A DNA stretch of 51,119 bases from Girardia tigrina (lineage: Eukaryota). The notes under the pieces are model-generated. The model was not told the DNA's origin. It searched no databases and saw nothing but the letters and a program-made list of their open reading frames with translations. Position numbers and translations under genes: made by a program. Location of the stretch: the NCBI GenBank assembly GCA_001938485.1, contig MQRK01230303.1, positions 4,839-55,957 of the forward strand, in the 5' to 3' direction. Shown here piece after piece: positions 14,036 through 46,957 of the stretch (its first letter is position 1; the number at the start of each line of letters is the position of its first letter).

Positions 14036-15760
14036 TTACATTTCTTTAATGTGGTAATAAATTACGATTCTATCTTCTCTGTTTCTCGTTATTTTGCGTC
14101 GGTCCAAGAAATTATCGTCTGTTTTCACTCGATTGGTTTTGTTTCTGTCATAATATAATTCCAAAGAGTCTTTCGGTACGTCAAATCGATTCGATAGAAA
14201 TTTGTTGATACTCGATATTCGATTGTTGTCAGAACAGACTTCGAATGATCGACATTTGCTATTGATTGGGACGAGCGATAAGGATAACTCGATTTTACTG
14301 GAGATAAGTGAGTCGATAATTATAAGTAAATCGATAATCAAATTTTACTCTGAAATAATTTTGTAATAAATATCGATTTTGTAATGATCAACGCAAAAAT
14401 TTTCAGAATTATTTAATAATTCATAAATATTTGAATCGTTTATTTTATATTGAGATATCGATTGAGGTTGAGAGAATAATTCGATTGAGGAAGGAGGCAC
14501 TTTTGTTAGATTGGAGATTTCAGAGATGATATGTGATAAATTGCTGGACACTGAATTTATTTTGTATGATTCACGATTGATATTGACTGGGACAAAGTTT
14601 ATTGATAGAGGAGCACCACCGCCTCTTCTATTACAAATTGATTAATTAATTAATGCGAATAATATTAAAATTATCTAACAATGGTATATCCGCACTGATT
14701 GTGTTTCCATCTTCTATTCCATAATACTCGAGTGTTCTGTGATCATCTAATCGTGTGGAATCAAATTTAAATTTCAGGTCGTTAAACTTATCTCTGTCAA
14801 ATTCTCCTCTTAAATCACATATACGATATTTCAAATTGCGAATTATCTCATTCGATCTCGTATGTATCATGTATCTATATTTTCCATTAACTTCATGTAT
14901 TGTCACTGTAATCGGTCTGATAAATAAAATGATCATAATTAAACCATTCTCGATCGCTCTCACCTTCCGCCATATTGTTCCATACAAATCTCATATGTCC
15001 GTCTAAATAATTCTCTCGCTGATTATTTGTATAAAATATCAATATAAATCGATCACTCACATTCATTTTTAGAAAAATTTCTAAACGATTTTTCTGAATT
15101 TGATGCGCAGTTCCTATTGCAAATTGATCAATTAATTCAGTCGAATAATATTAAAATTATCTAAAAATGGTTCATACGCATTGATTGTGTCTCCATCCTC
15201 TATTCCATACGACTCGAGTGTTCGGTCACCATCTAATATTTCGCCTGCAAATGAAAATTCCATTGATTGAATCGTGCTTGAGTTTGTTCCCATTCGATCA
15301 CATAATCGATACTTCAATTGGCGAATTGTCTCATTCGATCTCGCTTGTATCGTGTAGTTACGACCGTTTGTGATCACATCTTGTATAATCACACTAATCG
15401 GACTACAATACATCAAATGATCGATAAATCACTCTCAATCGACACAACTCGCTCTCACCTTCCACGCCGCAAATGCTCTCTATTGAATCTAAACGGAATC
15501 AATTATTAATCGACTCATTCCCTTCCTCAAACTCACTCTCGGTATTCCTCATTCCAGTCAAACAAAACATAATCGTCTTGTCCAATCTCGTATTTCCCAA
15601 TCCATTCGTGAGGAAAACAAATTCTATTTTCGAATATCAACAGAATATCCTCACACGGTTTGTCTACTTCATCCGCCAGCCTCTTCATGACATCCGATAC
15701 GCTGGCACCCGCTTTTATATTTAATGTATAATTGCGATTATCGTAACTTTTGAATCTCAT
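14036..15760 (-). CDS. Multi-ubiquitin/SUMO-like domain protein (~454 aa, 8 exons; 3 clear and 2 probable beta-grasp repeats)
   Basis: Exons 15760-15537, 15488-15459, 15402-15178, 15113-15061, 15018-14964, 14916-14680, 14627-14349 and 14297-14036 total 1365 nt in one open frame, with GT-AG introns of 42-64 nt. UBL signatures FAGEILDGDRTLESYGIEDGDTI and FDSTRLDDHRTLEYYGIEDGNTI. Linkers HLRRG|SP, EQYGG|RP, PLRGG|GAP. Confidence 0.82.
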
Positions 15761-16408: not shown

Positions 16409-16862
16409 ATGGGCGATGGTGTATAGTTTACACCAATATTTATAGGGACAGGATGCAGGTAACGAGACGAGGTAATGAACAATGATCGTCGTATGTTTGA
16501 TGATTTCCGACGTCGTCCTGTTTACAGGAAGGCTAAAGAGGACTATAGCGATGTCGATCGTTGCATTCGCAACATCCTGCTTAGCGGTGGCAGCATCTTT
16601 GTCGGCGCGTGGACCAACAATATTTATCGTTTCGACGAACTTGGCAAGGTAAACTATTAGTATGCGTTTGCTAATTGTTTATACTTATTCAGGGTCTACT
16701 ACAATGATGTCGAGACAGCGATTTCGCTTTGGATTAGGTGACTTTAATTCTATTAATTAAGAATTTTTTAACTTTTCAGGTTATTCAAGCAAGCCAAACG
16801 GACCGAAATCTCGCCCCGACTCGGCATTCCGACAAGCTGGGAGCCAATTAAAACCACTTGAG
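16409..16862 (+). CDS. Small spliced gene or pseudogene of unknown function, divergent from the UBL gene
   Basis: GC-richer exon-like blocks are separated by GT..AG introns of ~40-55 nt (near 16473-16527, 16649-16692 and 16738-16779). One frame reads through three exons (RLKRTIAMSIVAFATSCLAVAASLSARG...WEPIKTT*). Start and product are unresolved. Confidence 0.4.
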
Positions 16863-17594
16863 GATAATCGAGTTTGACTATCCTCAAATACGTGGAACAC
16901 GGGCTCTCATGCGTAAGGGGTGTCGGGTTTGGGACAGGATTTATATGAAGCTGCCTCGGGAGATTTGGTACAGGAAAGGGTTTGTATAATTGTGTCTCTG
17001 TCGTAACACTATGTTTCATAATCGAAATCTGTAAGCTTTAAATGATGCAATTAGAAACAGAGAATTGAAATACAAAATAAAAGAAAGGATGGAATGTTGT
17101 TAGTGAAAGATAAAGTATTATTAGTAAAACGTTTGACGAATTAGAATAAATTAAAAATGAGAGTGATAATAAAAAATTATATCGAATAGTATCGAGCATG
17201 GTGAAATCCTCTTTTACAAACTCATATAAAATATTTATAAAGTAACATCGGTCTCGAAATAAAACTGGATTTCAATAAATTATAATTGTGTGAGTCGAAG
17301 GACGACAAGGAACCTTTCGGAGATGACGCAGGCTGACCGTAGCATGTAAGGGGCACGCGGGCAGACCGACGTTTATTTCCTTGGGGTACGCCTCTCTCCA
17401 GCGGTAATCCTCATACGCCCCTCAGGAGCCAAAGGAGCCGAGTCGGTGTTTCATCGGGTTTCACCCCTCCACTGATAGTGGGCGTTGTCAGAAGACATTT
17501 CCACATCCCGCTCGGATAGCAATGCCTTTTAAAGGGGTGGATTGCAGGCCCAGACCCCCGTACTATGTTGGTCAGTACCCTAAAAAGGCAAGCT

Positions 17595-17693
17595 TCGGAC
17601 ACTTTAGCCTAGAGCAAGCTCTAGTTTCCCAGGGACACCACGTGGAGGTATGTCCGACTGGCTTAACACAGGTTACCAAAGTAACAGATCCCC
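17595..17693 (-). ncRNA. HDV-like (double-pseudoknot) self-cleaving ribozyme, copy 1
   Basis: Minus-strand RNA: P1 GGGGAU/GUCCCU with a G1-U wobble, P2 UCGGACAU/GUGUCCGA, P3 ACC/GGU, L3 UCCACGU, P1.1 CC/GG, P4 CUAGAG-CUUG-CUCUAG, and J4/2 GCUAA containing the catalytic C. Predicted cleavage is 5' of G17693. Confidence 0.88.
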
Positions 17694-19346
17694 AAAATTT
17701 TGGGGGGTAATCTTTGTTTATCGTGTTTAAAATCGAAATTTATCGAACGGTCATGATATTAGCATCATCCACTCAGAAACTGAGTTACCAGTCGGGTCAT
17801 CCTCGGTACTGGTAGAGAACACGAAGGCGCACCGACGTACACACAACGTGTTGATGTCACCGAAGGAGACGCGTCTGTTCCCGTAATTAATAAGAAAATA
17901 GAGAGCAATCACCGAGGGAGTATGAAGAGGGGTAAGATAAGTGTGAGTTGCCGTTTTACTCAGGAAAGCGGATGGGGGCTCAGGGCCAACGAAGATGTCT
18001 TGAAACGGAGGGAACACGACAATATATATGTTATTTTCTTCAATTTTGCATAAATATTATTTTGTTTATGTTTTATTAATTTTTTAAAATGTTTAAATTT
18101 AGATCTTTAAAAGTATTTTAATGGACATCATGTAAAAATTCAGTTCCTAAATAATTTTTCTCTAATTTTAAATCATTCCATTTTAAATTATTTTTTTAAT
18201 AAAACTTTCCATTGACAATTAAATTCAATAACATTATGATTTTTATTATAAACTTGATTTTAAAATATTCAATAAATTATTTTTTAATAAAAACTTTCCG
18301 CGTACAATTAAATTCGATAAACATTCTAATTTTATTTTAAATAGTGTTACATAATATTCAAAATCTTCTTTACAATATTCTTTAACTTTGATGATAATAT
18401 TTTAATTGTGAATTTTTAAAACTTAATTTTTATAAAAATTTGTCTCAATTTAATTAAAATATTATCATTACTCTAAACTTTTCAAAAAAAACTTATTTCA
18501 TTTTAATTAGTAACATACTATCTGTGAACTATAATTTTTACAAAAATTATTTCAATTTGATTAGTAGAAATATTACCTATAAAATGTATTTTTTATGCAA
18601 TCTTATTTATTTTAATTAGTAAAAAATATTATCTATAACTTAAATTTTTTATTTAAAAAAATATTTCATTTTAATTAGTCGAACATTATTTTTAATTTAT
18701 CTAAAATATAAATATGATTTTTAATTTAAAAATATCAAAAATTTAAAGTTCACCANNNNNNNNNNNNNNNNNNNNNNNNNNNNNNNNNNNNNNNNNNNNN
18801 NNNNNAGAAAGTTATTGTTTATATAGAAAGATGACCATTGCGTCACAGTGTGTTACGTCAAAATACTCTAATATGATTGGACGAATCACTTTGCACATTT
18901 AGACTAGGTTTACAAAACTTTATCTAGAGTGCTTCAGTAACTGTCCTTTCATAATTGTGATCAAAGTTACTAATCAAAACCCGAAAATAATAACTTTCTA
19001 ATTAAATACAGAACTGAAGATGCCACAAAAGTGGCGAAACATGTTTTCAAACGTCGGTCTTAGTCTTTTCGGAGATGATGCAGGCTGACCGTAGCATGCA
19101 AGGGGCACGCGGGCAGACCGACGTTTATTGCTTTTGAATACGCCTCCCTCCAGAGGTAATCTGCATACCCCCGTCAGGAGCCAAAGGAGCCGAGTCGGTG
19201 TTTCATCGGGTTTCACCCCTCAAATGATAGTGGGCGTTGTCGGAAGACATTTCCACATCCCGCTCGGATAGCAATGCCTTTTAAAGGGGTGGATTGCAGG
19301 CCCAGACCCCCGTACTATGTTGGTCAGTACCCTAAAAAGGCAAGCT

Positions 19347-19445
19347 TCGGACACTTTAGCCTAGAGCAAGCTCTAGTTTCCCAGGGACACCACGTGGAGG
19401 TATGTCCGACTGGCTTAACACAGGTTACCAAAGTAACAGATCCCC
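19347..19445 (-). ncRNA. HDV-like self-cleaving ribozyme, copy 2
   Basis: Same sequence as 17595-17693, offset by 1752 nt. Confidence 0.85.
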
Positions 19446-20628
19446 AAAATTTTGGGGGGTAATCTTTGTTTATCGTGTTTAAAATCGAAATTTATCGAAC
19501 GGTCATGATATTAGCATCATCCACTCAGAAACTGAGTTACCAGTCGGGTCATCCTCGGTACTGGTAGAGAACACGAAGGCGCACCGACGTACACACAACG
19601 TGTTGATGTCACCGAAGGAGACGCGTCTGTTCCCGTAATTAATAAGAAAATAGAGAGCAATCACCGAGGGAGTATGAAGAGGGGTAAGATAAGTGTGAGT
19701 TGCCGTTTTACTCAGGAAAGCGGATGGGGGCTCAGGGCCAACGAAGATGTCTTGAAACGGAGGGAACACGACAATATATATGTTATTTTCTTCAATTTTG
19801 CATAAATATTATTTTGTTTATGTTTTATTAATTTTTTAAAATGTTTAAATTTAGATCTTTAAAAGTATTTTAATGGACATCATGTAAAAATTCAGTTCCT
19901 AAATAATTTTTCTCTAATTTTAAATCATTCCATTTTAAATTATTTTTTTAATAAAACTTTCCATTGACAATTAAATTCAATAACATTATGATTTTTATTA
20001 TAAACTTGATTTTAAAATATTCAATAAATTATTTTTTAATAAAAACTTTCCGCGTACAATTAAATTCGATAAACATTCTAATTTTATTTTAAATAGTGTT
20101 ACATAATATTCAAAATCTTCTTTACAATATTCTTTAACTTTGATGATAATATTTTAATTGTGAATTTTTAAAACTTAATTTTTATAAAAATTTGTCTCAA
20201 TTTAATTAAAATATTATCATTACTCTAAACTTTTCAAAAAAAACTTATTTCATTTTAATTAGTAACATACTATCTGTGAACTATAATTTTTACAAAAATT
20301 ATTTCAATTTGATTAGTAGAAATATTACCTATAAAATGTATTTTTTATGCAATCTTATTTATTTTAATTAGTAAAAAATATTATCTATAACTTAAATTTT
20401 TTATTTAAAAAAATATTTCATTTTAATTAGTCGAACATTATTTTTAATTTATCTAAAATATAAATATGATTTTTAATTTAAAAATATCAAAAATTTAAAG
20501 TTCACCAAAAGGAACTCAAACACCAACAAATCCTCAAAACAAACTAAATTCATTATAACAACAACAACATCAAAACTTTGCCTTTGTAATTCAAAAGCAT
20601 GATTGCCGCCACGTGGAATTTCTTGTTC

Positions 20629-28356: not shown

Positions 28357-31300
28357 TCAACTTAACTGTTTGGTATCAGCTCCACGCGTATATAAGGCAG
28401 AACGTAACCATCTTCGATATTCTTCAGCCTTTTGAGCATTGGGTATATTTTTTAACCATTCTCTTGTACTTATGTTCTTACAGTTTTTACACCATGATGT
28501 ATTACTAAATTCATAAATGTCTTTAACTTCTTTACATTTTGTACATATTTCAAATATATTTTCTTGAACAACTGTGTTAAATTGAACTTCTTCTACTTTT
28601 TCATTCTCATAAATATCTTCTTCATGATATGATGATGCTTTATCAACTTGAAAAAATGATTCTTCTTCTATTTCCCAAGTCACATCATCAGAAATATCCA
28701 CTACCATTTTTCCATTTATTGCTTTATAATTTGAAATATAATAAGGATTCATCTTTGAATTTGCATCAGGTTCTCTCCTTTTTAAAAGATTCACATCATG
28801 TGTAAAGGTTTTAATGATGCAATCTTTTTTATCTGATTTCTTAATTCCATGTTGATAATCTTTTTCCCATGGTTTTATAATTTCCGAAGAAACATTTTCA
28901 GTTGATATTAATTTGAAGAAATCATCTGATTTAACTTTCTTTTTTATTTCCTTTGAATGTTTTCTTCTCTAATATCATTACATCGTTTAAAACTATGTTA
29001 TATTTTATTTTAGGTGCAATATATCGTCCAAATATAATTCCACCTTCTCCATAATCGTTTTTGCCTTGCCACATATTACCTCCAACGTAACCATTAGCAT
29101 TTAATTGATCATAATATTTTTAGATATATAAATTGAATAAGAATCTGAATAATATACATGAGGTTTTTTAAATCCATCAATAGTTTGTATAAATTTATTC
29201 ATGAATCTTTTTGAGTGTGCTAAAATAAATGATACAAAATGAACAGGGGTTGAAATGAGTTTTTATGTTTTTTACTTGATTTTATAATTCATTCTTTAGC
29301 TTCTTCAAATGTTAAATCAATTCCTTTTCGATTTTTCTTTCGTTTCACAACCCATAAATCTTTTCATTATTATTAAATCAACATAATTTTGTTTTAAGGT
29401 TGAAGTGCTCCAAATAAACATTTGATAATCCCCATTTGAATTGTTTTGCCATATAGTGAATTCATTAACAGTTTAACCATTTCATCTCCTACTTGATTTC
29501 CTTCAGCTTTATATTGTTTTCTTAAGTTGAATAATTTTTGAATAAATGATTTAAATGGAGACTAAGGTAAGTTTCTTTCATAAACAGTACCCTCATATAT
29601 ATTTAAGATTTCTCCTCCAGTTTCTACAATTTCTTGAATATCTACACTTGTTAAAACATCTCTAGCATATCCATTTCTAAATCTATTTACTTCATATTTA
29701 TTAGATTTCTCTCCATCTAAGATATTGTCTTTTACTGGAAGATGTTGTAAGAAGTTATCCGGTGGATAATGATATTTCACGTCAAAAAACCCTGTTCTTG
29801 GTCTAAACTTTTTAGAATTAAATAGTTTTAGAAATTCAAATTCGTCTTCTGGTTTAAATGCTCCTGCTGATTTAATATCAAGAAATTCACTATCATCATC
29901 GCTCATAGCACTTGGATATAAACTTGTAGCATCAAATGCCATTAAAAAATCAATTATCACAATTTTTGAGATTTTTATCTCTTCTCTAATTTCTAGAAAC
30001 TTTTTAACTGTTTCATTTTCTAGACATTCCTCCGGTATTGGTTTTTTAAGCCGTTTAAAGTCTTTCTGTCCTACTATTTTTAAAGTTGAATTTATAATCG
30101 ATGTCTTATACCATTACACAATTCAGGAATTTTTGTAAAATCGACATCGACATGTTTATTTAAAATCTTTAATATTTCATGCCATAATGGTGAATTGAAA
30201 TCTCTAATTGATGCAAACACTCTTCCTCCTGTGATTGATTTTCTAATAAAATCTCTCAGATATGGTTTTGAATGCGTATTAATGGGTTCTTTCTCAGGCT
30301 TAAACCATCATTTTAATGTTAAAGATGGAATTGTAAGACATGATGACATGTTTTGACCTACTAAATCCATCATCACTTTTGAATATTTTAAAACACAACA
30401 TGCTGCAGATATTACATCAAGTCTAAGATATGAGTCCCATTCGTCGCGTTTACTATGCTAATTACTTAATGTATGGTTTTCGTGATCTAATTTAGATTTT
30501 CTTAAATTCATAGGTATTTTAAATGTTTGACACATTGATTCTAAACTATATTTACAATGTTTATAAGAGTCTATAAATATTAGTTTTTGTAAAAACTGAC
30601 CGTTTAAATTTTTCTTTCTTGTTTTTTTCATAAACGATTGTTTAATTAATTCTTGATTTTGTGTACTTGTGAAAGGATTTGTATTTTTCCTAAATATTTA
30701 AATATATCGGTTAAACAAATTCTAATTCATTCGAATATTTGTACATTTTTATTAATTTCATCTAGTATAAGTTGATTGAGATTTTCTCCTGGATTTAAAG
30801 ATTCTCCTAAAATATTTTCAACATCTTTAATGCGTACAATTCCAACAACCAAGGTTCAAAATAACCCATTTTATTTGGTGATCCTTCTAAATCCCAGAAG
30901 AATGTATTATCTTCATTTACATTTTTTGTATTTATAATATAATTTATAATATCTTTAACATTTTTATCATTAGAAGTGATTTTGAATTTTGTAAAATTCT
31001 TTTTAATTTCTTCAATGCCTTTCTGTTTATTTTGTTTATCTATGAGACAATAGTGATTTTGATAAAGATAGAAAACCATGTCATCATTATTATCTCTAAC
31101 ATTTTTATTTGGATAAAGATGTCTATTATTTTCATCATATCTTAGAAAATTTGTATTAAATTTATTATTAAAGGATGCCATCTTTTTTCCGTCATAACAC
31201 CTTTTCCTGTATGACCACTATTACCATGTAAAAACTTTTTATATTTTTCAATCATAATTTCATTTATACATTCATATAGTGTTTTAGGTACAAAACATTT

Positions 31301-32113
31301 ATCTCCTTTATATGGGATAAGATCACGAGATTTTATAAGTTCTGCAATACCTGCAAGTGGTTTATCATAATTCACTAAAGCAGCGTAAATAAACCCTAAA
31401 TGTTGATAAAAACATAATAAAACTGAATCATGTTTAGTGGTATCAACATCATAACAGAATTTTCCACCAATAAATTTTCCTCGTGAATCTTTACGTACAT
31501 CATAAATCATAATATTAAACTTTTCTAAAAATGCTCCAAAATTTGATTTAATTTTCTTTGCGTTTAGCTTATTGATACATTTTATAAAACAATTTCCATT
31601 TGTGGGAATATAACAATACTCATTAGTGAATTCTTTTATATTATACCTAAAATCTATACCTTTTCCATACCTACTACGCTTTAATCTAGAAAATTCATCC
31701 TTTACAAATCTCACAACACCCGTATATGTATAAGGTGTTTCGTCAGAGGTTTCGTTAAACCTGTTTCTAAATGCTTCTAATGCTTGAAGATGAGAAAAAG
31801 CTGGAGGCCTATCACCAAAAACAGTTTTTCCGATGTCATTTCTTATTGCAGTACCAGGTATATCTACAACATATCCTTCTCTTAATTTACTTTCTACAAA
31901 ATTGAAAACATCTGTTAGATCTGTATTTTTAAAATATATTACTTCTGGAGGATTAAGCATTTCTCTAATGTCAAAGATAATATCATCATTATCAAGTTGT
32001 TGTTCCATTTCTTTTATACGTTTTTTGAGTTCCTTTAGTTTTTTATCCATTTTCTCTTTTTGCTTCCTTAATTCTTCTAAAGTCGTAGACTGCGGAATGT
32101 TTTTTCGCGCCAT
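28357..32113 (-). mobile_element. Polinton/Maverick (adintovirus-like) protein-primed DNA polymerase B pseudogene
   Basis: Frameshifted fragments in the expected order: N-terminal IPTNGNCFIKCI..LYQNHYCLI (vOTU-like), Exo I FWDLE, FIDSYKH, Exo III YLRLDV, motif A FDATSLYPSAM, motif B VKLLMNSLYGK (~29445-29480), a degenerate motif C YYSDSYSIY (~29130-29155), and a C-terminal CxxC..WCxxC. Confidence 0.9.
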
Positions 32114-32182
32114 TTTTTAAATAATTTTTTTATATAATGAATTTGTTTAATATATATATATATATATATATATAATAAAATT

Positions 32183-33493: not shown

Positions 33494-34205
33494 TTACAAA
33501 TTATTAGTGAAGTTTATCCATTCCTTCACTAATTTTTGCTCATTCTCATTCAATGTCATTTGAGAATTGTGAATGTTATCTTTTGGTATTTGCTTTCTTA
33601 AAATATCAAATGCGTGTTTCATATTAATTCTTGCTTGAAATTCTTTCGATTTAGTCAAATATAAAAGAACGTGTAAATTTGACAAAGCAATAAATTTATC
33701 TTCTTTCATGAAGTGATTCATATATGCTTTAAAAGTGTTATAAGTTTGACATTCATTTATATTTTCTCTATTTTCAATAGGGAATCGACTGCCAGAATTC
33801 GAATTTTTAGAAAGGGTGAACATTTCGTCGACTGAAAAAGCTACATTTAAACTAACAAGAAAATATTCCACTGGTACGGACCGAGCCTCTTTTGTGACTG
33901 CATTTCCGTATTTATCAATTTTTTTGTACAAGATATCAGGTATAAACTGATTCTGTAATGCAAGTTTGGTGTATACAAGCTCGGGAGCGTCAAACAACGG
34001 TACCAGAATATTTTCCTTCACTAATTCCATGCAGTGATTTGATACTTGATATCCTTCAAAATCAATTTTATTCTCTTTATTTCCAGTGACGATTATAGTA
34101 ACAAATTTTGATCCATATTTTCCATCTGGATTTAAATTGCACTTGTTGGGAAAAATGTTTTGTAAAGTGGCTGCAGTTATGCATTCTTCCGCTGTCATTG
34201 TAAAA
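33494..34205 (-). pseudogene. NPLOC4: NPL4 (nuclear protein localization 4, p97/Cdc48 cofactor) C-terminal half, intronless, 5'-truncated by a repeat
   Basis: EECITAA..QN..PN.C...PDG.YGSKFVT..VTG....I.FEGYQVSN.CM.LV, PD..YK..DKYGN.V...AR..PVEY, FPIENR and LSN.H.LLYL are NPL4 hallmarks. The frame is open for 234 aa and abuts the AT-rich repeat at ~34207. Confidence 0.85.
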
Positions 34206-34206
34206 T

Positions 34207-37200
34207 GTAATAATTGTAATTAATATTCTTTTAATTTAAAAAATTAGTAAACAATAAAAATGTTTTTTTACATTTGTCAGTAAATTTATGAATATTTTTT
34301 AGTTAAATTTAAAATTAATATTTAATACACTATTGGGTTCTTGATGAAAAGAATTTATCATCAACACAAAATTTTATTTCTACCACAATTTGAGTTTTTT
34401 TAAAAAAATATTTCCGAGGAACTTTTGCACTTTCTTTTTACACAAACCATTATAAATAAGAATTGATATAAATATAAATATGGTTATCGTATTTTTTTCG
34501 AATTAAAATTTTATACTTTTTTTTAATAAAGAATTATAAAAAGAATTAAAATTTTGTCAAAGATTTTGTTTCGTCTTTTATTAAATTTCAATTTTATTGT
34601 ACCTTGAAATTTACTTGTTTCTCAATTAAATTTCCCAATTCTATACAATAGCATTTTCATTTCGTTTTCATAATAGTTATAAAAATTACTTTGGATTTAA
34701 TAATATTCGAAAATAGAATTTAAATTCGCTATTTCGTTTAATTTAACATTTTTTAAATTACCCCTTTTTTACATAAAAATAAAATTATATTTCCATTAAT
34801 AATTACGTTTTCCAAATAAAATTAAAACCGCAGTTTCATTTAAATCGATTTAATAGTTTTACAATTATATTTTGATTCCAATTAAAATTTCCAAAAAATA
34901 AAATTAAAGTGACATTTTTAATTTACTTCGATTTTATCGTGTAAAATAAAAGAAAGTTACAAAAATATTTTAGTTTACTTTCATTTCGCAAATAAAATAT
35001 TAAACTTTTGATTTTATTTCACTTAAATATTTTCATCAAATTTGAAATTAACTTTTTTATTTTATAATAAATCTTTTAATAATAAATCTTTTTAATCTCT
35101 CGAAATCAAAAATATTTTTTATCTAATTTTCTTTTATTAATAAGATATTAATTGAACAAGATATACGTAAACTCATTTTTCACTATCAGAGACGTGATTT
35201 AACAAGCTCAAATCTCTGTAAGGAGAATAATGCAACTCTTGGATAAGGTCCGATGAGTTTACGGATGTGTTCTAAATGGATAGAGAAATTCAGGAATTGA
35301 GATAAATCACAAGAAGACCAAGCAAAAGAAGGCAGACAATCGATAGAATTGTGTAAGCAATTTGATGAGATTGTGCAAGAGAATACAACCGCAACTATGT
35401 GGACAAAGGCATCGCAACTGAATGTTTCGCAAGATGCAGTCTGGAAATATCTGAAGAATATGAGGAAGAGTTTCATGTGCAATACATGGGTGACGCATTA
35501 TTTGTCTGATGAAACGAGGCAAAAAATCATTGAAATTTGTATCGAACCACCAATGAAAGAATTTACTGCATAGCTTTTTAACATGATACGATATTTGAAT
35601 GCATTTTGATAATTCTTTTTTCAAAATCTATGGAACAGTCACAATTAAGCACAAAACACATAACTTCGATATGTGCTTCTGAAAAAAACAATTATCTGGA
35701 ATATTTTGGGATTGTTGGAGAGTACTTCTTATTAGCATACTCAAAAACTGACTCAAAAGGAAGACTGATTGCTTCTTGCGCCACCATCACGATACTGCTA
35801 CTAAAGCAAAGGCGAATCTGTAAAAAAATAGAACTTCAACGGCTTCCTCAACCACAATTCTCTCCAAACTTTCTCCATCAGATTTTAATACATTCGTTTC
35901 CATGAAAGTAATACTGAGATGAAAGAAATTCACATGTTTGATTGTCACTCCGGTGTACGTCGAACGTTGGATTGGATGCAAGGATTTAGTGTTCTTCGTC
36001 GATAGTGTCAAAAAACGTCCTGGTTGTAGGGAACGATGTGTAGCATACTGTGGTAGCTATAAGGAGTTTTGACGAGATAATGACGAATAAATATTGCGTG
36101 TTATATGACTTTTTGTTTTAACTCGGAAAAGACTTATCGGCCAACCTATATTCACAAACTTTTGATTTTACGATTCCTTAGACCACAATGCACAAACATT
36201 TCCCTGTGCCTTGCTACCCTCAAACCTAAGTCATCATTAGAATCATTACATGATCCTTTGGGAGACATTTCCTAAAATAATTCATAATTATGTATCGTAA
36301 TATATTTACTCAAGTTCTACAAAAATTTGAACGTATGATTTCTCAAGTGGTTGTAAAATAGTGCTGTGATTTGACTTTATACGCTGATGTTTTGTAAAAT
36401 ATTTATTTAATAGAATGAACAAGTTTTTACTATTCACAATGTCATCATTTATGCAGAACATTTATTAATAGCACAAACAGAATCGCCATTTTACCAATTT
36501 TCAATCGTTCATCTTCCTTTGCGAAGACATTGATAACCTTTTCAATCCAAAATTGACAGACTCCAAATTAATTTAATAATTAAAATTAATTATCGATTTT
36601 ATTATTGATTAAATTATGTTGAAAAACTTTACTGATTTTTAAAATATTAATTATTTAAAATTAATTTTTACAAAATTTCAAAGCTTATTTGATACTTAAA
36701 ATTTTAAATTAAAGTGAGTAACTTCCAAATAATAAAAACGAAAAATACTAATCAGCCATCAAGGTAGAGAAGACCCATTGAAGAGTAACATTTACATATG
36801 TCACTAAGCGCATATTATTCAAAAATATTTAATTGCAATGACATAAAAATACTTTGAGAATTAATACATACGAATGGAGAATAAATATTGCTGTAGGAGA
36901 GAGAAGACGGAACTTTGTTGGGAACTTCTTTTCATTTGTTGCATTACTTTTGTTCGGGTTCCTTTTTGTGAACTTTAATTATTGATATTTTTTAAATTTT
37001 TGATATTTTGAAATTAAAAATCATATTTTGTATTTTTTAAAAAAAGTAATGTTCGACTAATTAAAACGAAATAAGTTTTAAATAAAGAATTTTTTAGTTT
37101 ATAGATAATATTTTAATTAAACTGGGACGATTTTTTATAAAAATTGTTTTAGAAATTGACAATTAAAATAACAGCTTTGGAGTGAAAGAATATTGTAAAG

Positions 37201-38790
37201 AAGATTTTGATATATTTTGTATCACTATTTAAAATCATAATGTTTATTGAATTTAATTGTCGTTAAAAGTTTTAATTCGGTTTTTTAATTTTTAAAGGAC
37301 AAAATATTTTTGTCCAAAAAAACTTAATGATTTAATTTTTGTAAAGAAAGTTGTTGAAATGTTTTAAATCGTAATATGAAAATTTTATTCTCAAAAAAAA
37401 ATAAATTAGGTTATAGAATTTGTAAATTTTCTTTTCATAATACTTTTTAATCAAGATTAAGTAAAATAAATTTCAAAAAATAAAAGTAATATTTCTCTTT
37501 CATCTTTTTTCCGGAAATAATATATTTAAACATAATTCTGTAGCAAATGAAGTAATATTCTTCCGTATTTTATGACGCATTAAATTTTAAATTTTGCCGT
37601 TTAAATTAAATTGTATATTTTACTTTCAAAAAATAGTTACAAATATTGATTTGTTTCAAAATAATTTAAATGCTTAATAATTCATGATGAAAGTTTATTT
37701 TAAATAATAATTTAAAATCGTCGCTAAGTTGTAGACCTAAACAGTTCTTAATTATACTATAATTATTAAAAAAATATAAAATCACATATTTAAACGTTAG
37801 TAATACAATTTTAATAATAAAATACAGTGTATTTTATTCATAAAAGTAAAATTAAATACAGTTGCAAATATTATTTAAATTATAGATAATTATAAAATTG
37901 TATAATGTAATAAGTGTAATTAATATTCTTTTAATTTAAAAAATTATTAAACAATAAAAATGTTTTTTTTACATTTGTCAGTAAATTTATGAATATTTTT
38001 TAGTTAAATTTAAAATTAATATTTAATACACTATTGGGTTCTTGATCAAAAGACCTTGTCATGAACACAAAACTTTATTTCTACCACAATTTGAGTTGTT
38101 TTTAACAAATATTTCCGAGGAACTTTTGCACTTTCTTTTTACACATTATAAATCAGAATTGATATAAATATAAATATGGTTATCGGATTTTTTTTGAATT
38201 AAAATTCTATACTTTTTTTAATAAAAAATTTTAAAGTTAATTAAAATTTTGTCACAAACATTTTGTTTCATCTTTTATTAAATTTCAATTTTATTGTACC
38301 TTGAAATTTACTTGTTTCTCAATTAAATTTCCCGATTCTATACAATAGCATTTTTTATTTCGCTTTTATAATAAATTTAAAAATTACTTTGGATTTAATA
38401 ATATTTGAAAATAGAATTTAAATTCGCAATTTCGTTTAATTTAACATTTTTTAAATTAACCCTTTTTACATAAAAATAAAATTATATTTCCATTAATAAT
38501 TACGTTTTCCAAATAAAATTAAAACCGCAGTTTCATTTAAATCGATTTAATAGTTTTACAATTATATTTTGATTCCAATTAAAATTTCCAAGAATTAAAA
38601 TTATAGTGACATTTTTAATTTACTTCGATTTAATCGTGTAAAATAAAAGAAAGTTACAAAAATATTTTAATTTACTTTCATTTCGCAAATAAATATTAAA
38701 CTTTATATTACTTTAGATTTTATTTCACTTAAATATTTTCATCAAATTTGAAATTAACTTTTTAGCTTTATAATAAATCTTTTAATAACC
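34207..38790. repeat. Dispersed AT-rich repeat family: ~880-bp direct copies at ~34207-35090 and ~37905-38790
   Basis: The two copies are collinear and highly similar. Segment ~36955-37270 is also the reverse-complement homologue of the AT-rich part of the 18020-18755 / 19772-20520 duplication. Confidence 0.85.
35165..36150 (+). mobile_element. Degenerate mariner element with right TIR
   Basis: Relics of WIEKFR, TWVTHYLS (WVPH-like) and PQPQFSP (HPPYSP-like), plus the terminal GAAAAGACTTATCGGCCAACCTATA. Confidence 0.75.
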
Positions 38791-39144: not shown

Positions 39145-39335
39145 TAGCCCCTTCATATTGACCGACTCGGGCACATACGTCGAAGCTCGTGATGTATTTT
39201 GTAAATTTGTTGGCAATACTTCTCTGCAATTATTGTTTCACGCGTATTCAGAAAGCTGTGAGCAAGTAGACAGAATGCAGACCACCAAACAGTCACTATA
39301 ACCTTTTTTGGTGAGGTTTCGGTTTCGGAAAGTGG
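39145..39335 (-). mobile_element. Mariner transposase internal fragment
   Basis: Minus strand reads HFPKPKPHQK.VIVTVWWSAF.LLAHSFLNTRETIIAEKYCQQI..IHHELRRMCP. Confidence 0.8.
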
Positions 39336-40568: not shown

Positions 40569-41560
40569 TTAATGTAACACTCTCATGTTTGTTGGATCGT
40601 TGATCTGTTTTATGTAATACTTGAATTGTTGCATGGATTTGAAATATAAAGAAACCACATGTACGTTTGAATTATCAGAAGGTAATTTATTCCTGATAAT
40701 TTTTGTGGCTTTACTAAGTATTTCTTCAGAAAGTTGTAAAAACATTTTTAATCTGGTTTTGGAATTTGTCATTGCTGTATGAATTGATTTCCAATTTAAG
40801 CCCGATTTCGATAACCGATAGCAAATGTTTGAGATTCCTTTGATTAGTGATCAGTAACAGTAACGTTGCTGTTCGATCTTCTCGTCGCCCCTTTCTCTCG
40901 AAAATCGTCTTGATGGTTTCAATGATTGCGGAATCAGATTTATCGACGATGAGCGATGGAATAAGAACTGTGAATATTCGATCAGTCATTGAGAGCAACA
41001 TATCGTGTTTTATCCAGCCGCACAAGCTCTGGATGGTAATGATACTCTCTGATCGTAGATTGATCAATACCCACTGGGAATTGACAGGATTCGAAACTAT
41101 TTCTTGACAAAAATCCATAATATACTCGACATTGTCGATTATAAACCACACAACTTCATTTTTGCGCTTCTCTTGGGCCTGATTATCACCGGGTAGTGTC
41201 TCGGACAGACAATAGAGCACCACAAAGATCACCGCTTGAGTTATTGTTCCGTAGCTTTTAAATCCAATTAAATCAACAATAAATGTGTTATAAGTCTGTG
41301 GACATTCATGTCGAATGAAATAAACCACAGATTTGGTGATTATCCATCGTAAAACTCTCTCGGAATCGTTATTTACATTTATTGATTGATATTCTTGTAT
41401 TATTTCCATCAAATAAGACTTTGTTTCATTTTTCCGCTGGAAAGGGGGCAGGTACCTCCAGTGCATAAAAATGATGCGAGCTATGCATCAGCCAGGTGTC
41501 ATGAAAAAGAAATCGAAGCCAAACTAAATAATTGAAATAAAAACGGCTGGTTAGTCGAAT
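40569..41560 (-). pseudogene. Exportin-5-like (Xpo1/importin-beta N-terminal region) intronless fragment with frameshifts
   Basis: KSVVYFIRHECPQ..GTITQAVIFVVLYCLSE and IFERKGRREDR resemble exportin-5 IKREWPQ..GETQTELVMFILLRLAE and VSRKGKLEDRK (recalled consensus). Frameshift near 40770. Confidence 0.6.
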
Positions 41561-42889: not shown

Positions 42890-44592
42890 AGCTCCAATGC
42901 ATACATACATTATGATGATAGCTCATGATACTGGTATGCTGTAGTACTGCCAAGTTGTGGATCCGGATTAAACGTTTGGATTGAGTTTAGAATAGCTTCA
43001 AAGTCACAATTCATGATAATGGGCACTTGAATTATATTCATAATCATATTATTTGAATTCGATATAATCTTCCTTTGGAAATTCCGCTCTGGTGCAATGA
43101 TTGTTATTGCAATAGGCCTTGTGCTCCTCCAATTTGATTATAGCTTCAGTACCATTAAAATGTATAAAACATCTTTTACAAATCTCGATCCTTTCTGTAT
43201 GTTTTGATATTTGATATCGGATAAGGCGCTCAAAGTTCTTGATCCATATAAAATGCCTCTTTTCTCCATCATCTAGCAATAAAAAATCCCGATGATCTTC
43301 TAATTCTTCCTTACATACAAGTAAGGGATAAAATTTTTCCTTCTCCAATCCAAAAATATTGATTGAAACATCGTTGCAGTTTCCAAGTTTATTGACTTCA
43401 TCCAAGCTCGGTGGGAATTTTATGCAGTTGAAGTCATATGGGTGCTGCAGATTGTTGTATATCCATACTAGTGATGTATGCTTCTGATCCTCAACAAATT
43501 TTGACAGCATGGCACACTTGAAGCACATGCTGTCATCTTTTCGGACATTGACACATGCCTTTTTATTAGCTATCCATTCAGGAAGCGGTATGTAGGAGCT
43601 GCCTCTCATTGGGGAGTATTTATGATCATTAATTATCAATTGGTTAAGGGATGCAATAGTCCATCTACTCTTCTTCTCTTTGCTATCATCAGCTTCCTTC
43701 ATTATCTTGGTATGTTCTTCATTGAGCCATTTCATAATATCATTGGATTCTAACATTGGTCTATTTTTGGTCTTGAAGGCTCTATGTGATAATTCATCAT
43801 CAAAATTGGTGAATGTTGCCTCCAAAATAAGGTTTACTTTGATAGCCTTGAAATCAACCATGTTGTCTTGTTTCCTTCAATGATTTCAATGGTTTCCTTC
43901 TTGGAATATTCCAGAAAATCATGCCTAGGTTAACCTGGGGAGCCTTGATAACATATTGATGTACCTTCTTATTCAATGAAGCTTTATGAATTGGTCTCTG
44001 TCTTGAGCTTTTTGATGGAATATTTGTGATATTTGTATCATTTTTACGTTTTGATGGAATATTTGAAGCCTTAGCTGCCTTGGCTGCCTTGGCTGTATTT
44101 GACACATGCATTTCTATTGGAACATTTGTAACATTTACATGTTTTAAGAGAACTTTTACCGTATTTGTAACATTCTTCTCAATTGGAACATTTGAAACAT
44201 TTAGTGTGGCGAGAACTGGATACGCTGATGATTGGAAGATAGTCTTCTTGGACTTGTTTGAAAAGTCACACAAATGGTCCTTGTGACATTCATAAATTTT
44301 GATTATAGTCACCACTACTTGCGTTTTGACATACTGGATAAATGTAATACTCACATCTATTGAACACATATCCATAGTAACGCTGCATTGTATCATGATA
44401 ATTTTGCGGATTGTGAATATTTGCCATGCAGCATCTATATAATGAACATTGTTGAATTTTAGTAGGAATTTTCTTATGAATCATCTTCGACATTTTTTCT
44501 TTGAATATATTTTTTTTCGATTTGATGAATGGAACTAGATGTTGTTTATGGTCATTGTAAAATTCTTCAACTAGTTCTGTACACAGCCTCAC
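42890..44592 (-). mobile_element. Second Polinton-type pPolB relic (N-terminal region to Exo I) with upstream low-complexity ORF pieces
   Basis: KYSPMRGSSYIPLPEWIANKKACVNV..DDSMCFKCA, SINIFGL, HFIWIKNFERL and the zinc finger CKRC..H..C. A shifted frame at ~42990-43030 gives Exo I VPIIMNCDFEAIL. Truncated near 42890. Confidence 0.85.
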
Positions 44593-45360: not shown

Positions 45361-46690
45361 AAAAAATAGGAGTCCCACTATAGATATATTTATAAATATT
45401 AATATTCAATTTTTGGGTCACCACATTACATTTAACGTTTTCAGCGGATATTCTATTNNNNNNNNNNNNNNNNNNNNNNNNNNNNNNNNNNNNNNNNCGT
45501 CTGGTTTACGGACCTCACGGTGAATATTTTTCATTAGTAAATAATTCTAAACTTTCAAATTCAGATTTTCATGTTTCAAATGCCGGGGTCATTAGGGGGA
45601 CTTTTTATTAGTTATTGCTAGCGATACAATTTATATTTTTGTATGGATATTGGATGATACGAAGAGACAAGGAACGGCATTAGATGGGGGAGGGCGTCAA
45701 CTTCCTCGGGAAAGTCGAACCATGGATAAATTCCAATGAGAACCGGTCGAAATGAAGCCAAGTAATTTTGTTTGCTTAACTAATTTATTCTGGCACCCGC
45801 ATAATATTTGGGTCCACTTTTCAAGTTATATTTCTACAAACAAACCCAGGTTCTCAGGCGGTAGCAACGATTGAAAATGTTATTTGGCTTCGACATTATT
45901 ATTTATTGATTGCTTCACAGGCTTGAGTTATCGAGGAATTGTGGCTTGATTAATACGACTTGCAGACTAAATTAAATGTTGAGGAGCGCGAATACACGTA
46001 TTTGAGGGTAAACATAAGGGTATGATTGGTTTCCTTGGATACATGTCTCAAAATTAAAATGATGGTCAGATATTTAAAATAATAGAAGTAAGGAACACAA
46101 CATTAAGATATGATGCTTGTTTTTTGTACATCTTTTTTGTTTATTGATCTACACTTAGTGGGCCTCTACATGACCAAAACGTAATATTAAGTGTTCCCTG
46201 ATCATTTAAACTTATGAGTAGAAGAACATTCTCAATAAATGCAAGTCATTTATATTGATGGAACTATGAAAAACACTTTTTAGTTAATATAAACTTCAAT
46301 ATTTTATAATGGTAATGAGTATTATTAGACAAATGAGATATATCGATAAAACAATGAAGTTCCACTAAATTCCAGTTATAACAATAACTGAAATTTGACA
46401 ATTAATAACATAAACACAATGTGATCTTTCAAAGTGTGCTTAAGGGAGTACCCTCATTGAAGATGAAAGATTTTTTCAGCGATACAGCGGCGTACTTTTC
46501 AAATGGAATTTCGTCTTCTGTAACACCTCACATCATGTTTCCAAAGTGGCTTGTTTCTTTTTATAACCTGAACTTAAAAAATTAAAATAGTGTCAAATTC
46601 TGCATGGAGAAGTAATTTAAATTAGTGGACACCACAATTATTAAAATCGAAAAAAGGACCATGATGATTCATCAATCTTTTGAATATAAA

Positions 46691-46957
46691 ATTTGTTGGC
46701 AATACTTCTTTGTAATTATTGTTTCACCCGTATTCATAAAGCTGTGATCAAGTAGACAGAATGCAGACCACCAAACAGTCACCATTTATTTTTGTGGCTT
46801 TACTAAGTATTTCTTCAGAAAGTTGTAAAAACATTTTTAATCTGGTCTTGGAATTTGTCATTGCTGTATGAATTGATTTCCAATTTAAGCCCGATTTCGA
46901 TAACCGATAGCAAATGTTTGAGATTCCTTTGATTAGTGATCAGTAACAGTAACGTTA
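46691..46957. repeat. Chimeric local duplicate: copy of 39206-39296 (mariner) fused to copy of 40702-40868 (exportin-like)
   Basis: ATTTGTTGGCAATACTTCT...CCAAACAGTCAC followed within ~10 nt by TTTTTGTGGCTTTACTAAG...CAGTAACAGTAACGTT, in the same order and orientation as the originals. Confidence 0.88.

Follow-up and report, generated by a model that had tools for sequence, protein, structure and literature searches.

The window analysed here, 51,119 nucleotides of Girardia tigrina DNA, carries on its minus strand a short, GC-rich element, termed R, that belongs to a high-copy family that starts where an HDV-like ribozyme is predicted to cut. The reading slightly favoured for R is that it is a non-autonomous non-LTR retroelement of the SIDE/NARTc-like kind, nested in a second repeat termed U, and that its two copies in the window are alleles of one locus. 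The window as a whole is 31% GC and contains six N runs; remnants of transposons abound in it, among them an LTR-type pol frame.

A family that begins at the predicted cut site

The family was traced in public sequencing runs. Part of 17290-18030 is contained in 20 of 24 listed runs, 18 of which hold small shares only, and seven runs were compared with the window, among them X4, X6, X13 and X16 from the small-share group. Matching contigs came from six of the seven, and the remaining run, X21, consists of raw reads (0 matches in 12.8 million) and is uninformative. Contigs on 16700-18755 number 8704 in X1, 7003 in X2, 622 in X4 and 494 in X6, and those on 18930-19590 number 3797 in X1, 13 in X13 and 35 in X16. 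Summed contig depth is not equal to copy number and is used here for edges alone, and the joints, loose ends, pieces and variants described are those found in the part of the matches that was listed. Runs X1 and X2 are near to the window, with 4 differences over 234 nt and 6 over 291 nt of 3' flank; because their majority alleles differ from it at several sites, they may derive from a different strain or species. Run X16 is recorded as an RNA library, and its 35 contigs fall alike across R, U and a neighbouring hammerhead repeat; they are strandless and possibly derived from DNA.

Just upstream of the ribozyme of copy 2, the summed depth in X1 drops about 400-fold, from 629k at 19413-19435 to 1.6k at 19459-19481, before rising again to 687k above 19528. 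All eight of the longest X1 pieces listed (of 3797) end at 19438-19447, and the predicted cut lies at 19445. The 5' edge of the family is thus the predicted ribozyme cut site. A second edge lies downstream, at the end of a 133-nt head (17561-17693, minus strand) that comprises the ribozyme and the first hairpin. Six listed pieces, from all four runs with contigs on 16700-18755, start at 17561-17563, and five of the eight listed X1 pieces start at the equivalent position, 19313. Because these relatives are 83-89% identical, carry other bodies and break at the end of the head, the ~133-nt head appears to be common to several families. The R body that follows it in copy 1 (17389-17594, minus strand) is non-coding, GC-rich and covered by contigs of X1, X2, X4, X13 and X16. 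The earlier note had proposed a multicopy, ORF-less, ribozyme-headed family on the strength of the two copies in the window; such a family does exist, but the evidence for it is in the contigs of the public runs and not in those two copies. An abundant family with a 133-nt head in several related species is useful for annotation and lends itself to studies of how the ribozyme is conserved.

The HDV-like ribozyme

The putative ribozyme of copy 1 occupies 17595-17693 on the minus strand, with a predicted cut 5' of G17693, and is identified by its helices, by a structural descriptor and by the 5' edge of the family. P1 is formed by 17693-17688 and 17636-17631, P2 by 17657-17650 and 17602-17595, and P3 by 17649-17647 and 17639-17637; a J1/2 hairpin spans 17685-17672, L3 spans 17646-17640, P4 spans 17624-17609, and the catalytic C, equivalent to C75 as read from the sequence, is at 17607. 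The nested double pseudoknot is complete at 17693, with 6 of 6 pairs in P1, 8 of 8 in P2, 3 of 3 in P3 and 7 of 7 in P4, and with P1.1 present. The cut position is a G, a G-U pair lies at the cut site, and both the conserved L3 and the catalytic C followed by an A in J4/2 are in place. The core of L3 is one base away from the conserved R2 motif CCUCCUCGUGG, as quoted in the available part of PMC5035012. At 6 bp, P1 compares with the usual ~7 nt of HDV-like ribozymes given in the accessible text of PMC3774820.

The descriptor finds exactly two ribozymes in the window, which are the two copies of R; it has no match among 3000 dinucleotide-shuffled versions of the 707-nt GC block or among 60 shuffled versions of the window. 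No Rfam family is matched by the region at gathering level, the best being a sub-threshold match to HDV-F-prausnitzii (RF02682), which reaches 21.3 bits where the gathering threshold is 44. The suggestion that a ribozyme heads the element therefore holds up, as all helices and the catalytic C were found and 0 of 3000 shuffles fit the descriptor; by this structural model the HDV-type fold is real, and self-cleavage is predicted. Only seven of the 34 variant rows listed fall within the ribozyme, six at five positions of the P4 tip and one, a minor variant, in P2, and among these rows P1, P3, P1.1, L3 and the catalytic C are free of substitutions. One contig of X1 and one of X13 lack a single base of L3. 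Scans of metagenome, viral and prokaryote-genome collections with a pattern for the ribozyme core gave 0 matches.

Cleavage may depend on the upstream flank. A 16-nt palindrome at 17690-17705, made up of upstream flank and filler together with the first four G of the ribozyme, is predicted to compete with P1, the energies being -7.8 kcal/mol for its pairing with the P1 strand and -7.4 kcal/mol for the alternative. Given this predicted pairing, the copy at this locus may cut poorly, and its ribozyme is possibly damped by the upstream palindrome.

Composition, coding content and label of the element

The GC-richness of the element is evident (54% over 17315-17693), but the description of its surroundings as otherwise very AT-rich fails nearby, where 17774-18021 is 50% GC. 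The same interval had been called structured; however, its 379 nt give folding z-scores of -0.24 and -0.92, with 40 of 100 and 19 of 100 shuffles folding equally well. The UGCCUUUU/AAAAGGCA stem singled out in that connection is present in the predicted fold of the window, in a domain with a folding z of -1.04 against shuffles; in X1, however, most of the depth carries an allele with a G opposite an A at 19336, the equivalent of 17584, so that one of the eight pairs is lost.

The longest sense frame downstream of the ribozyme has 65 codons. No credible coding remnant was found in R, a search of 1.84 billion proteins with the 65-codon frame returning a single match, to a PKD-repeat protein, which was judged to be due to chance; a Pfam match to the same frame (E 0.088) was rejected. 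At this locus R has neither a poly(A) nor a microsatellite tail. It lies outside 28S rDNA, with flanks formed by the repeat U that have no rRNA match in Rfam. No hammerhead was found within R, the one hammerhead core found in the window being at 19014-19040. An origin in an rDNA spacer, tRNA, 5S RNA or snRNA finds no support from Rfam or ARAGORN. The earlier description of R as SIDE- or SINE-like survives in its first half: SIDE-like is the best label, and a strict SINE, which carries a small-RNA head, is not supported: the head is a ribozyme rather than a Pol III-type small RNA, with no tRNA detected by ARAGORN and no tRNA, 5S or 7SL match in Rfam even at E up to 5.

Nesting of R in the repeat U

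The extent of R is set by the repeat around it. The 5' part of U lies at 17710-18021 on the minus strand and, as judged from depth, joints and loose ends, consists of a high-copy block (17774-18021) and a low-copy linker variant (17710-17773). Its 3' part, module T (17306-17380, minus strand), contains an AATAAA and a hairpin; the earlier note had counted it as part of the element. Joints of U to T without R occur in contigs of four runs, X1, X2, X4 and X16. The exact empty site is found in X1, with joints from 17382 to 17704 or 17707, and in X2, with joints from 17382 or 17384 to 17704 or 17706, and in both runs these joints use the linker of the window locus itself. Other linker variants in X1, X2, X4 and X16 join T to U at 17764. 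From the empty-site joints it follows that the inserted unit is ~305-311 nt long and that the distal ~70 nt, or T, also belong to U. The ~380-nt unit described before is thus probably a composite of a ~305-311-nt element and ~70 nt of host repeat. Nor is 17315 the 3' end of the family, being simply where copy 2 is cut off; loose ends in all three runs with contigs on 18930-19590 continue like copy 1 for a few bases past the equivalent position.

The inserted unit is flanked on both sides by TACCCC(CC)AA, with six filler bases at the 5' junction. The 3' copy of this short direct repeat, TACCCCAA, is at 17381-17388, and the 5' copy, at 17709-17700, has two extra C and makes up 17694-17709 together with the filler. 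On the evidence of the sequence and the empty-site joints, the repeat may be a target duplication or a priming microhomology. A 6-nt match between the two junction windows arises in 1600 of 20000 shuffles (8%). Among the contigs listed none crosses the filled 5' junction or the junction of R with T, so the filled locus is attested by the window, and the R-T join is known from one locus.

Without an insert, U is ~390 nt long, and it is present in high copy in X1, X2, X4 and X6 with several linker variants. It starts with TG, has a TATA-like motif ~25 nt before T and carries its AATAAA inside T. A clear CA end, a primer site and a 4-6-bp duplication, looked for as signs of a solo LTR, were not seen; an LTR and a SINE-like repeat are both candidate classes for U. 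A possible 7-nt repeat flanking U (18022-18016 and 17308-17302) is also found in 418 of 20000 shuffles, and a scan of metagenomes with a U-block pattern gave 0 matches. The 3' flank of copy 1 (17211-17314) is joined to T in contigs of X4 and X6 at ~84-85% identity, which suggests either that U continues into conserved low-copy sequence or that the site is orthologous.

Two other accounts of the extent of R have to be weighed against the nested one. The ~380-390 nt of R and T together could be an established hybrid family, with a ribozyme head and a 3' end shared with U, in which case the locus would have arisen by recombination into U via T. T does resemble a shared 3' module, as at least two other sequences lie upstream of it (30 and 44 loose-end contigs in two surveys), a short GAGAG run stands just ahead of it both in R and in the U variants, and in an X13 contig the 350 nt preceding T are not joined to the U block; T is evidently common to more than one family. 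Hybrids of this sort also have a precedent in the R2/R1 hybrid SIDEs described in the available part of PMC3414825. Yet the exact empty-site joints have the same linker, in X13 and X16 the depth of T tracks that of U and not that of R, X6 has T next to an R bin of depth 0, and an X4 contig combines T and the downstream flank of copy 1 with non-R sequence upstream. The hybrid account is therefore considered unlikely, though still to be reckoned with. Direct observations of R without T, beyond the blur introduced by the divergence of copy 2, come down to two: a 232-nt X16 contig that matches R down to 19139 and whose other 142 nt do not match T, and one X1 contig that joins 19139 to 19047 and skips T. 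Since copy 2 has diverged at 19130-19138, an alignment would end at 19139 whether or not T came next.

The other account, close to the orphan 5' UTR of the earlier note, would make R the first ~305 nt of a full-length LINE of RLE, RTE or Ingi type, either undescribed or already in Repbase, with this copy truncated at its 3' end after priming inside the 5' UTR. Planarians are rich in RLE-type LINEs, including a non-site-specific R2 (PMC5035012, in the part available), the same X16 contig extends 142 nt beyond the R body, and long contigs of up to 1424 nt have the 133-nt head followed by other sequence. These long contigs, however, reach only 83-89% identity and cease to align at 17561, and their divergence and common break mark them as relatives of R, not extensions of its body. 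R moreover holds no ORF remnant, and retrotransposition usually truncates 5' ends rather than 3' ends. A truncated LINE is accordingly judged improbable, and nesting of a short element in U is the account retained here.

Two copies, probably one locus

The two copies of R lie in a duplication of 1441 bp (17315-18755 and 19067-20507). Copy 2 of R, with a truncated T, occupies 19067-19445 on the minus strand within the second duplicate, its ribozyme being at 19445-19347. The duplicates are identical over 1265 bp (17491-18755), 1062 bp of which are flank upstream of the ribozyme, and copy 1 of the duplication ends at a 50-N scaffold gap (18756-18805). All 16 substitutions between the copies fall within 17327-17490, which confirms the earlier observation that differences are confined to the distal part; all 16 lie within 176 nt of the fork of the copies, a placement with P ~2e-15 if differences were evenly spread. 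The different flanks also reported for the copies exist on the 3' side, but upstream the two are identical for 1062 nt until copy 1 meets the N gap at 18756. Because the 1265 identical bp include this 1062-bp flank and end at an N gap, they probably represent one insertion seen twice, and because both copies have the same upstream flank and the same site of insertion they lend no support to independent insertions. A near-identical pair of copies beside an N gap is no evidence for them.

It is thus quite probable that the two copies are alleles of one locus that were assembled side by side. On the simplest account, the alleles would have been kept apart over roughly one read length and collapsed further out, and the break into two contigs would go back to an insertion of Penelope type that interrupted T in one of the alleles. 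The 3' neighbour of copy 2 is indeed a high-copy repeat with a minimal hammerhead: a terminal-repeat fragment at 18806-19051 (plus strand), with the hammerhead core at 19014-19040 and a palindromic stem-III loop, which we take to be of Penelope type. A 15-nt filler separates this fragment from copy 2 and contains an inverted copy of 12 nt of T. The copies could instead be real and separate members of an amplified unit of U and T with R between them, either through a recent tandem duplication with gene conversion or as paralogs joined in a chimeric contig. Sixteen differences per 176 nt are many for alleles, and the summed depth of the linker variant is 1.6-2.9k compared with ~110 for long single-path X1 contigs, an excess which indicates that the linker itself is repeated. 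Separate copies are nonetheless doubtful, given the perfect identity up to a contig end at a round 50-N gap, a differing 3' flank that is the end of a transposon, and an order and orientation that suit an allelic bubble.

Other joints involve the same neighbours. Loose ends at 18985 and 18988, together with an X13 joint on the opposite strand, suggest an internal inversion in the hammerhead repeat, and the X1 contig that joins the R body (19139) to the hammerhead repeat (19047) indicates that R may adjoin this repeat at another locus. Within the duplication, an AT-rich dispersed repeat (14% GC) with 89- and 56-nt subrepeats runs from 18022 to 18755, where the N gap follows, and an inverted relative of it, with 80-85% identity, is found at 36991-37277.

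Comparison with known ribozyme-headed elements

Non-autonomous retroelements headed by a ribozyme have been described as R2 SIDEs in Drosophila rDNA (PMC3414825) and in trypanosomatids (PMC4035085), as far as the available parts of these sources go. Like R2 SIDEs, R is short and ORF-less and has an HDV-like ribozyme at its extreme 5' end in place of a Pol III head. Unlike them, it lies outside 28S rDNA, is dispersed and, by contig counts, far more numerous, lacks a poly(A) tail, has another repeat as its host and is matched to no parent LINE. With NARTc, RIME and SIDER, which bear the Pr77 hallmark of the trypanosomatid L1Tc/ingi clade, R shares a ribozyme head common to families with different bodies, and in both systems the upstream flank can modulate cleavage, a property that is predicted for R. 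The head of R is however ~133 nt long and includes a J1/2 hairpin, as against 77 nt in Pr77 elements, and R differs from these in lacking a poly(A) tail and a clean 7-11-nt duplication and in having an animal host (comparisons drawn from the accessible text of PMC4035085). The ORF-less derivatives of RTE, Ingi, Vingi and R2-clade LINEs, as presented in the part available of PMC5786205, are bipartite, combining a ribozyme-bearing LINE 5' end with a short 3' part; this is also the predicted design of R, but neither of its ends has been matched to an autonomous LINE in a comparison that had Repbase outside its scope.

Candidate autonomous partners from the same phylum are the planarian RLE-type LINEs R2-1_SM, R2NS-1_SMed and LIN9/15/24/25/26_SM (PMC5035012, PMC4640811, PMC3774820). 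According to the portions of these papers available, R2NS-1_SMed is non-site-specific (PMC5035012), the five LIN elements target rRNA or tRNA genes (PMC4640811), and the ribozyme of Schmidtea R2 cuts at -28, inside 28S rRNA (PMC3774820), in contrast to R, where the element itself provides the 5' strand of P1. Compared by eye, the ends of R bear no resemblance to the LIN end sequences given in the available text. A literature search found for free-living flatworms no ribozyme-headed non-autonomous element beyond the R2 ribozyme. The R family may already be listed in Repbase, and R probably adds one more case to an established type of mobile element, protein-less and headed by a ribozyme.

A proposed route of insertion

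In the proposed mechanism, R would be co-transcribed from an outside promoter, and cutting of the transcript by the ribozyme at G17693 would create the element's 5' end, a step for which the fold and the family boundary are observed and cleavage is predicted. By analogy, the reverse transcriptase of a partner LINE would then copy R at a DNA nick. Insertion would have taken place between the linker of U and module T, as suggested by the empty site in contigs of a close relative, and may have left behind the TACCCC(CC)AA repeat and the six filler bases, which are themselves observed. In the available text of PMC3774820, R2 elements with a cut site at their own 5' end are characterized by variable 5' junctions, non-templated bases and priming at microhomologies, and the filler at the 5' junction of R fits such microhomology priming by analogy. 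The 3' junction could be the natural end of R or the product of internal priming at the 6-nt match, and hence the family may be longer than this copy.

A bolder reading is that R is a site-preferring parasite of U, inserting at one motif immediately downstream of the TATA-like sequence and immediately ahead of the 3' module of U. Insertion at that motif has been seen at one site, and targeting is regarded as quite improbable. If it were true, U would give transcription, the ribozyme would remove the 5' part of U, and the RNA would keep the 3' recognition end of U, such that every insertion would create a hybrid element capable of using a second retrotransposition machinery. R would then be a live example of ribozyme-headed hybrids arising outside rDNA. 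The nesting is important only if it is proven to be targeted.

Other features of the window

Close to R, a GC-rich high-copy repeat at 16770-16990, with a summed depth in X1 of up to 125k and a 30-nt hairpin at 16858-16887, has no Rfam match. A likeness of T to this repeat was considered and rejected, as it was not significant in any of 30 comparisons among modules (R, T and U). Further local duplications, with 93-99% identity, pair 34197-35082 with 37897-38788, 40699-40867 with 46788-46956, and 39203-39299 with 46689-46785; one of them includes the end of an exportin-like frame, and they may be allelic or segmental. In a tree of 35 rows picked from 157 proteins, an NPL4 fragment at 33497-34219, with 241 codons and no stop, falls among flatworms (support 96/86) on a very long branch; it is possibly a retrocopy or a fast-evolving paralog. 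Fragments of a type-B DNA polymerase frame at 28360-32116 and 43052-43876, with a weak match to PF03175 and unnamed frames nearby, suggest Polinton/Maverick-like relics. Two tandem SUMO/ubiquitin-like coding units, ~486 nt apart and 72% identical, lie at 14628-15463.
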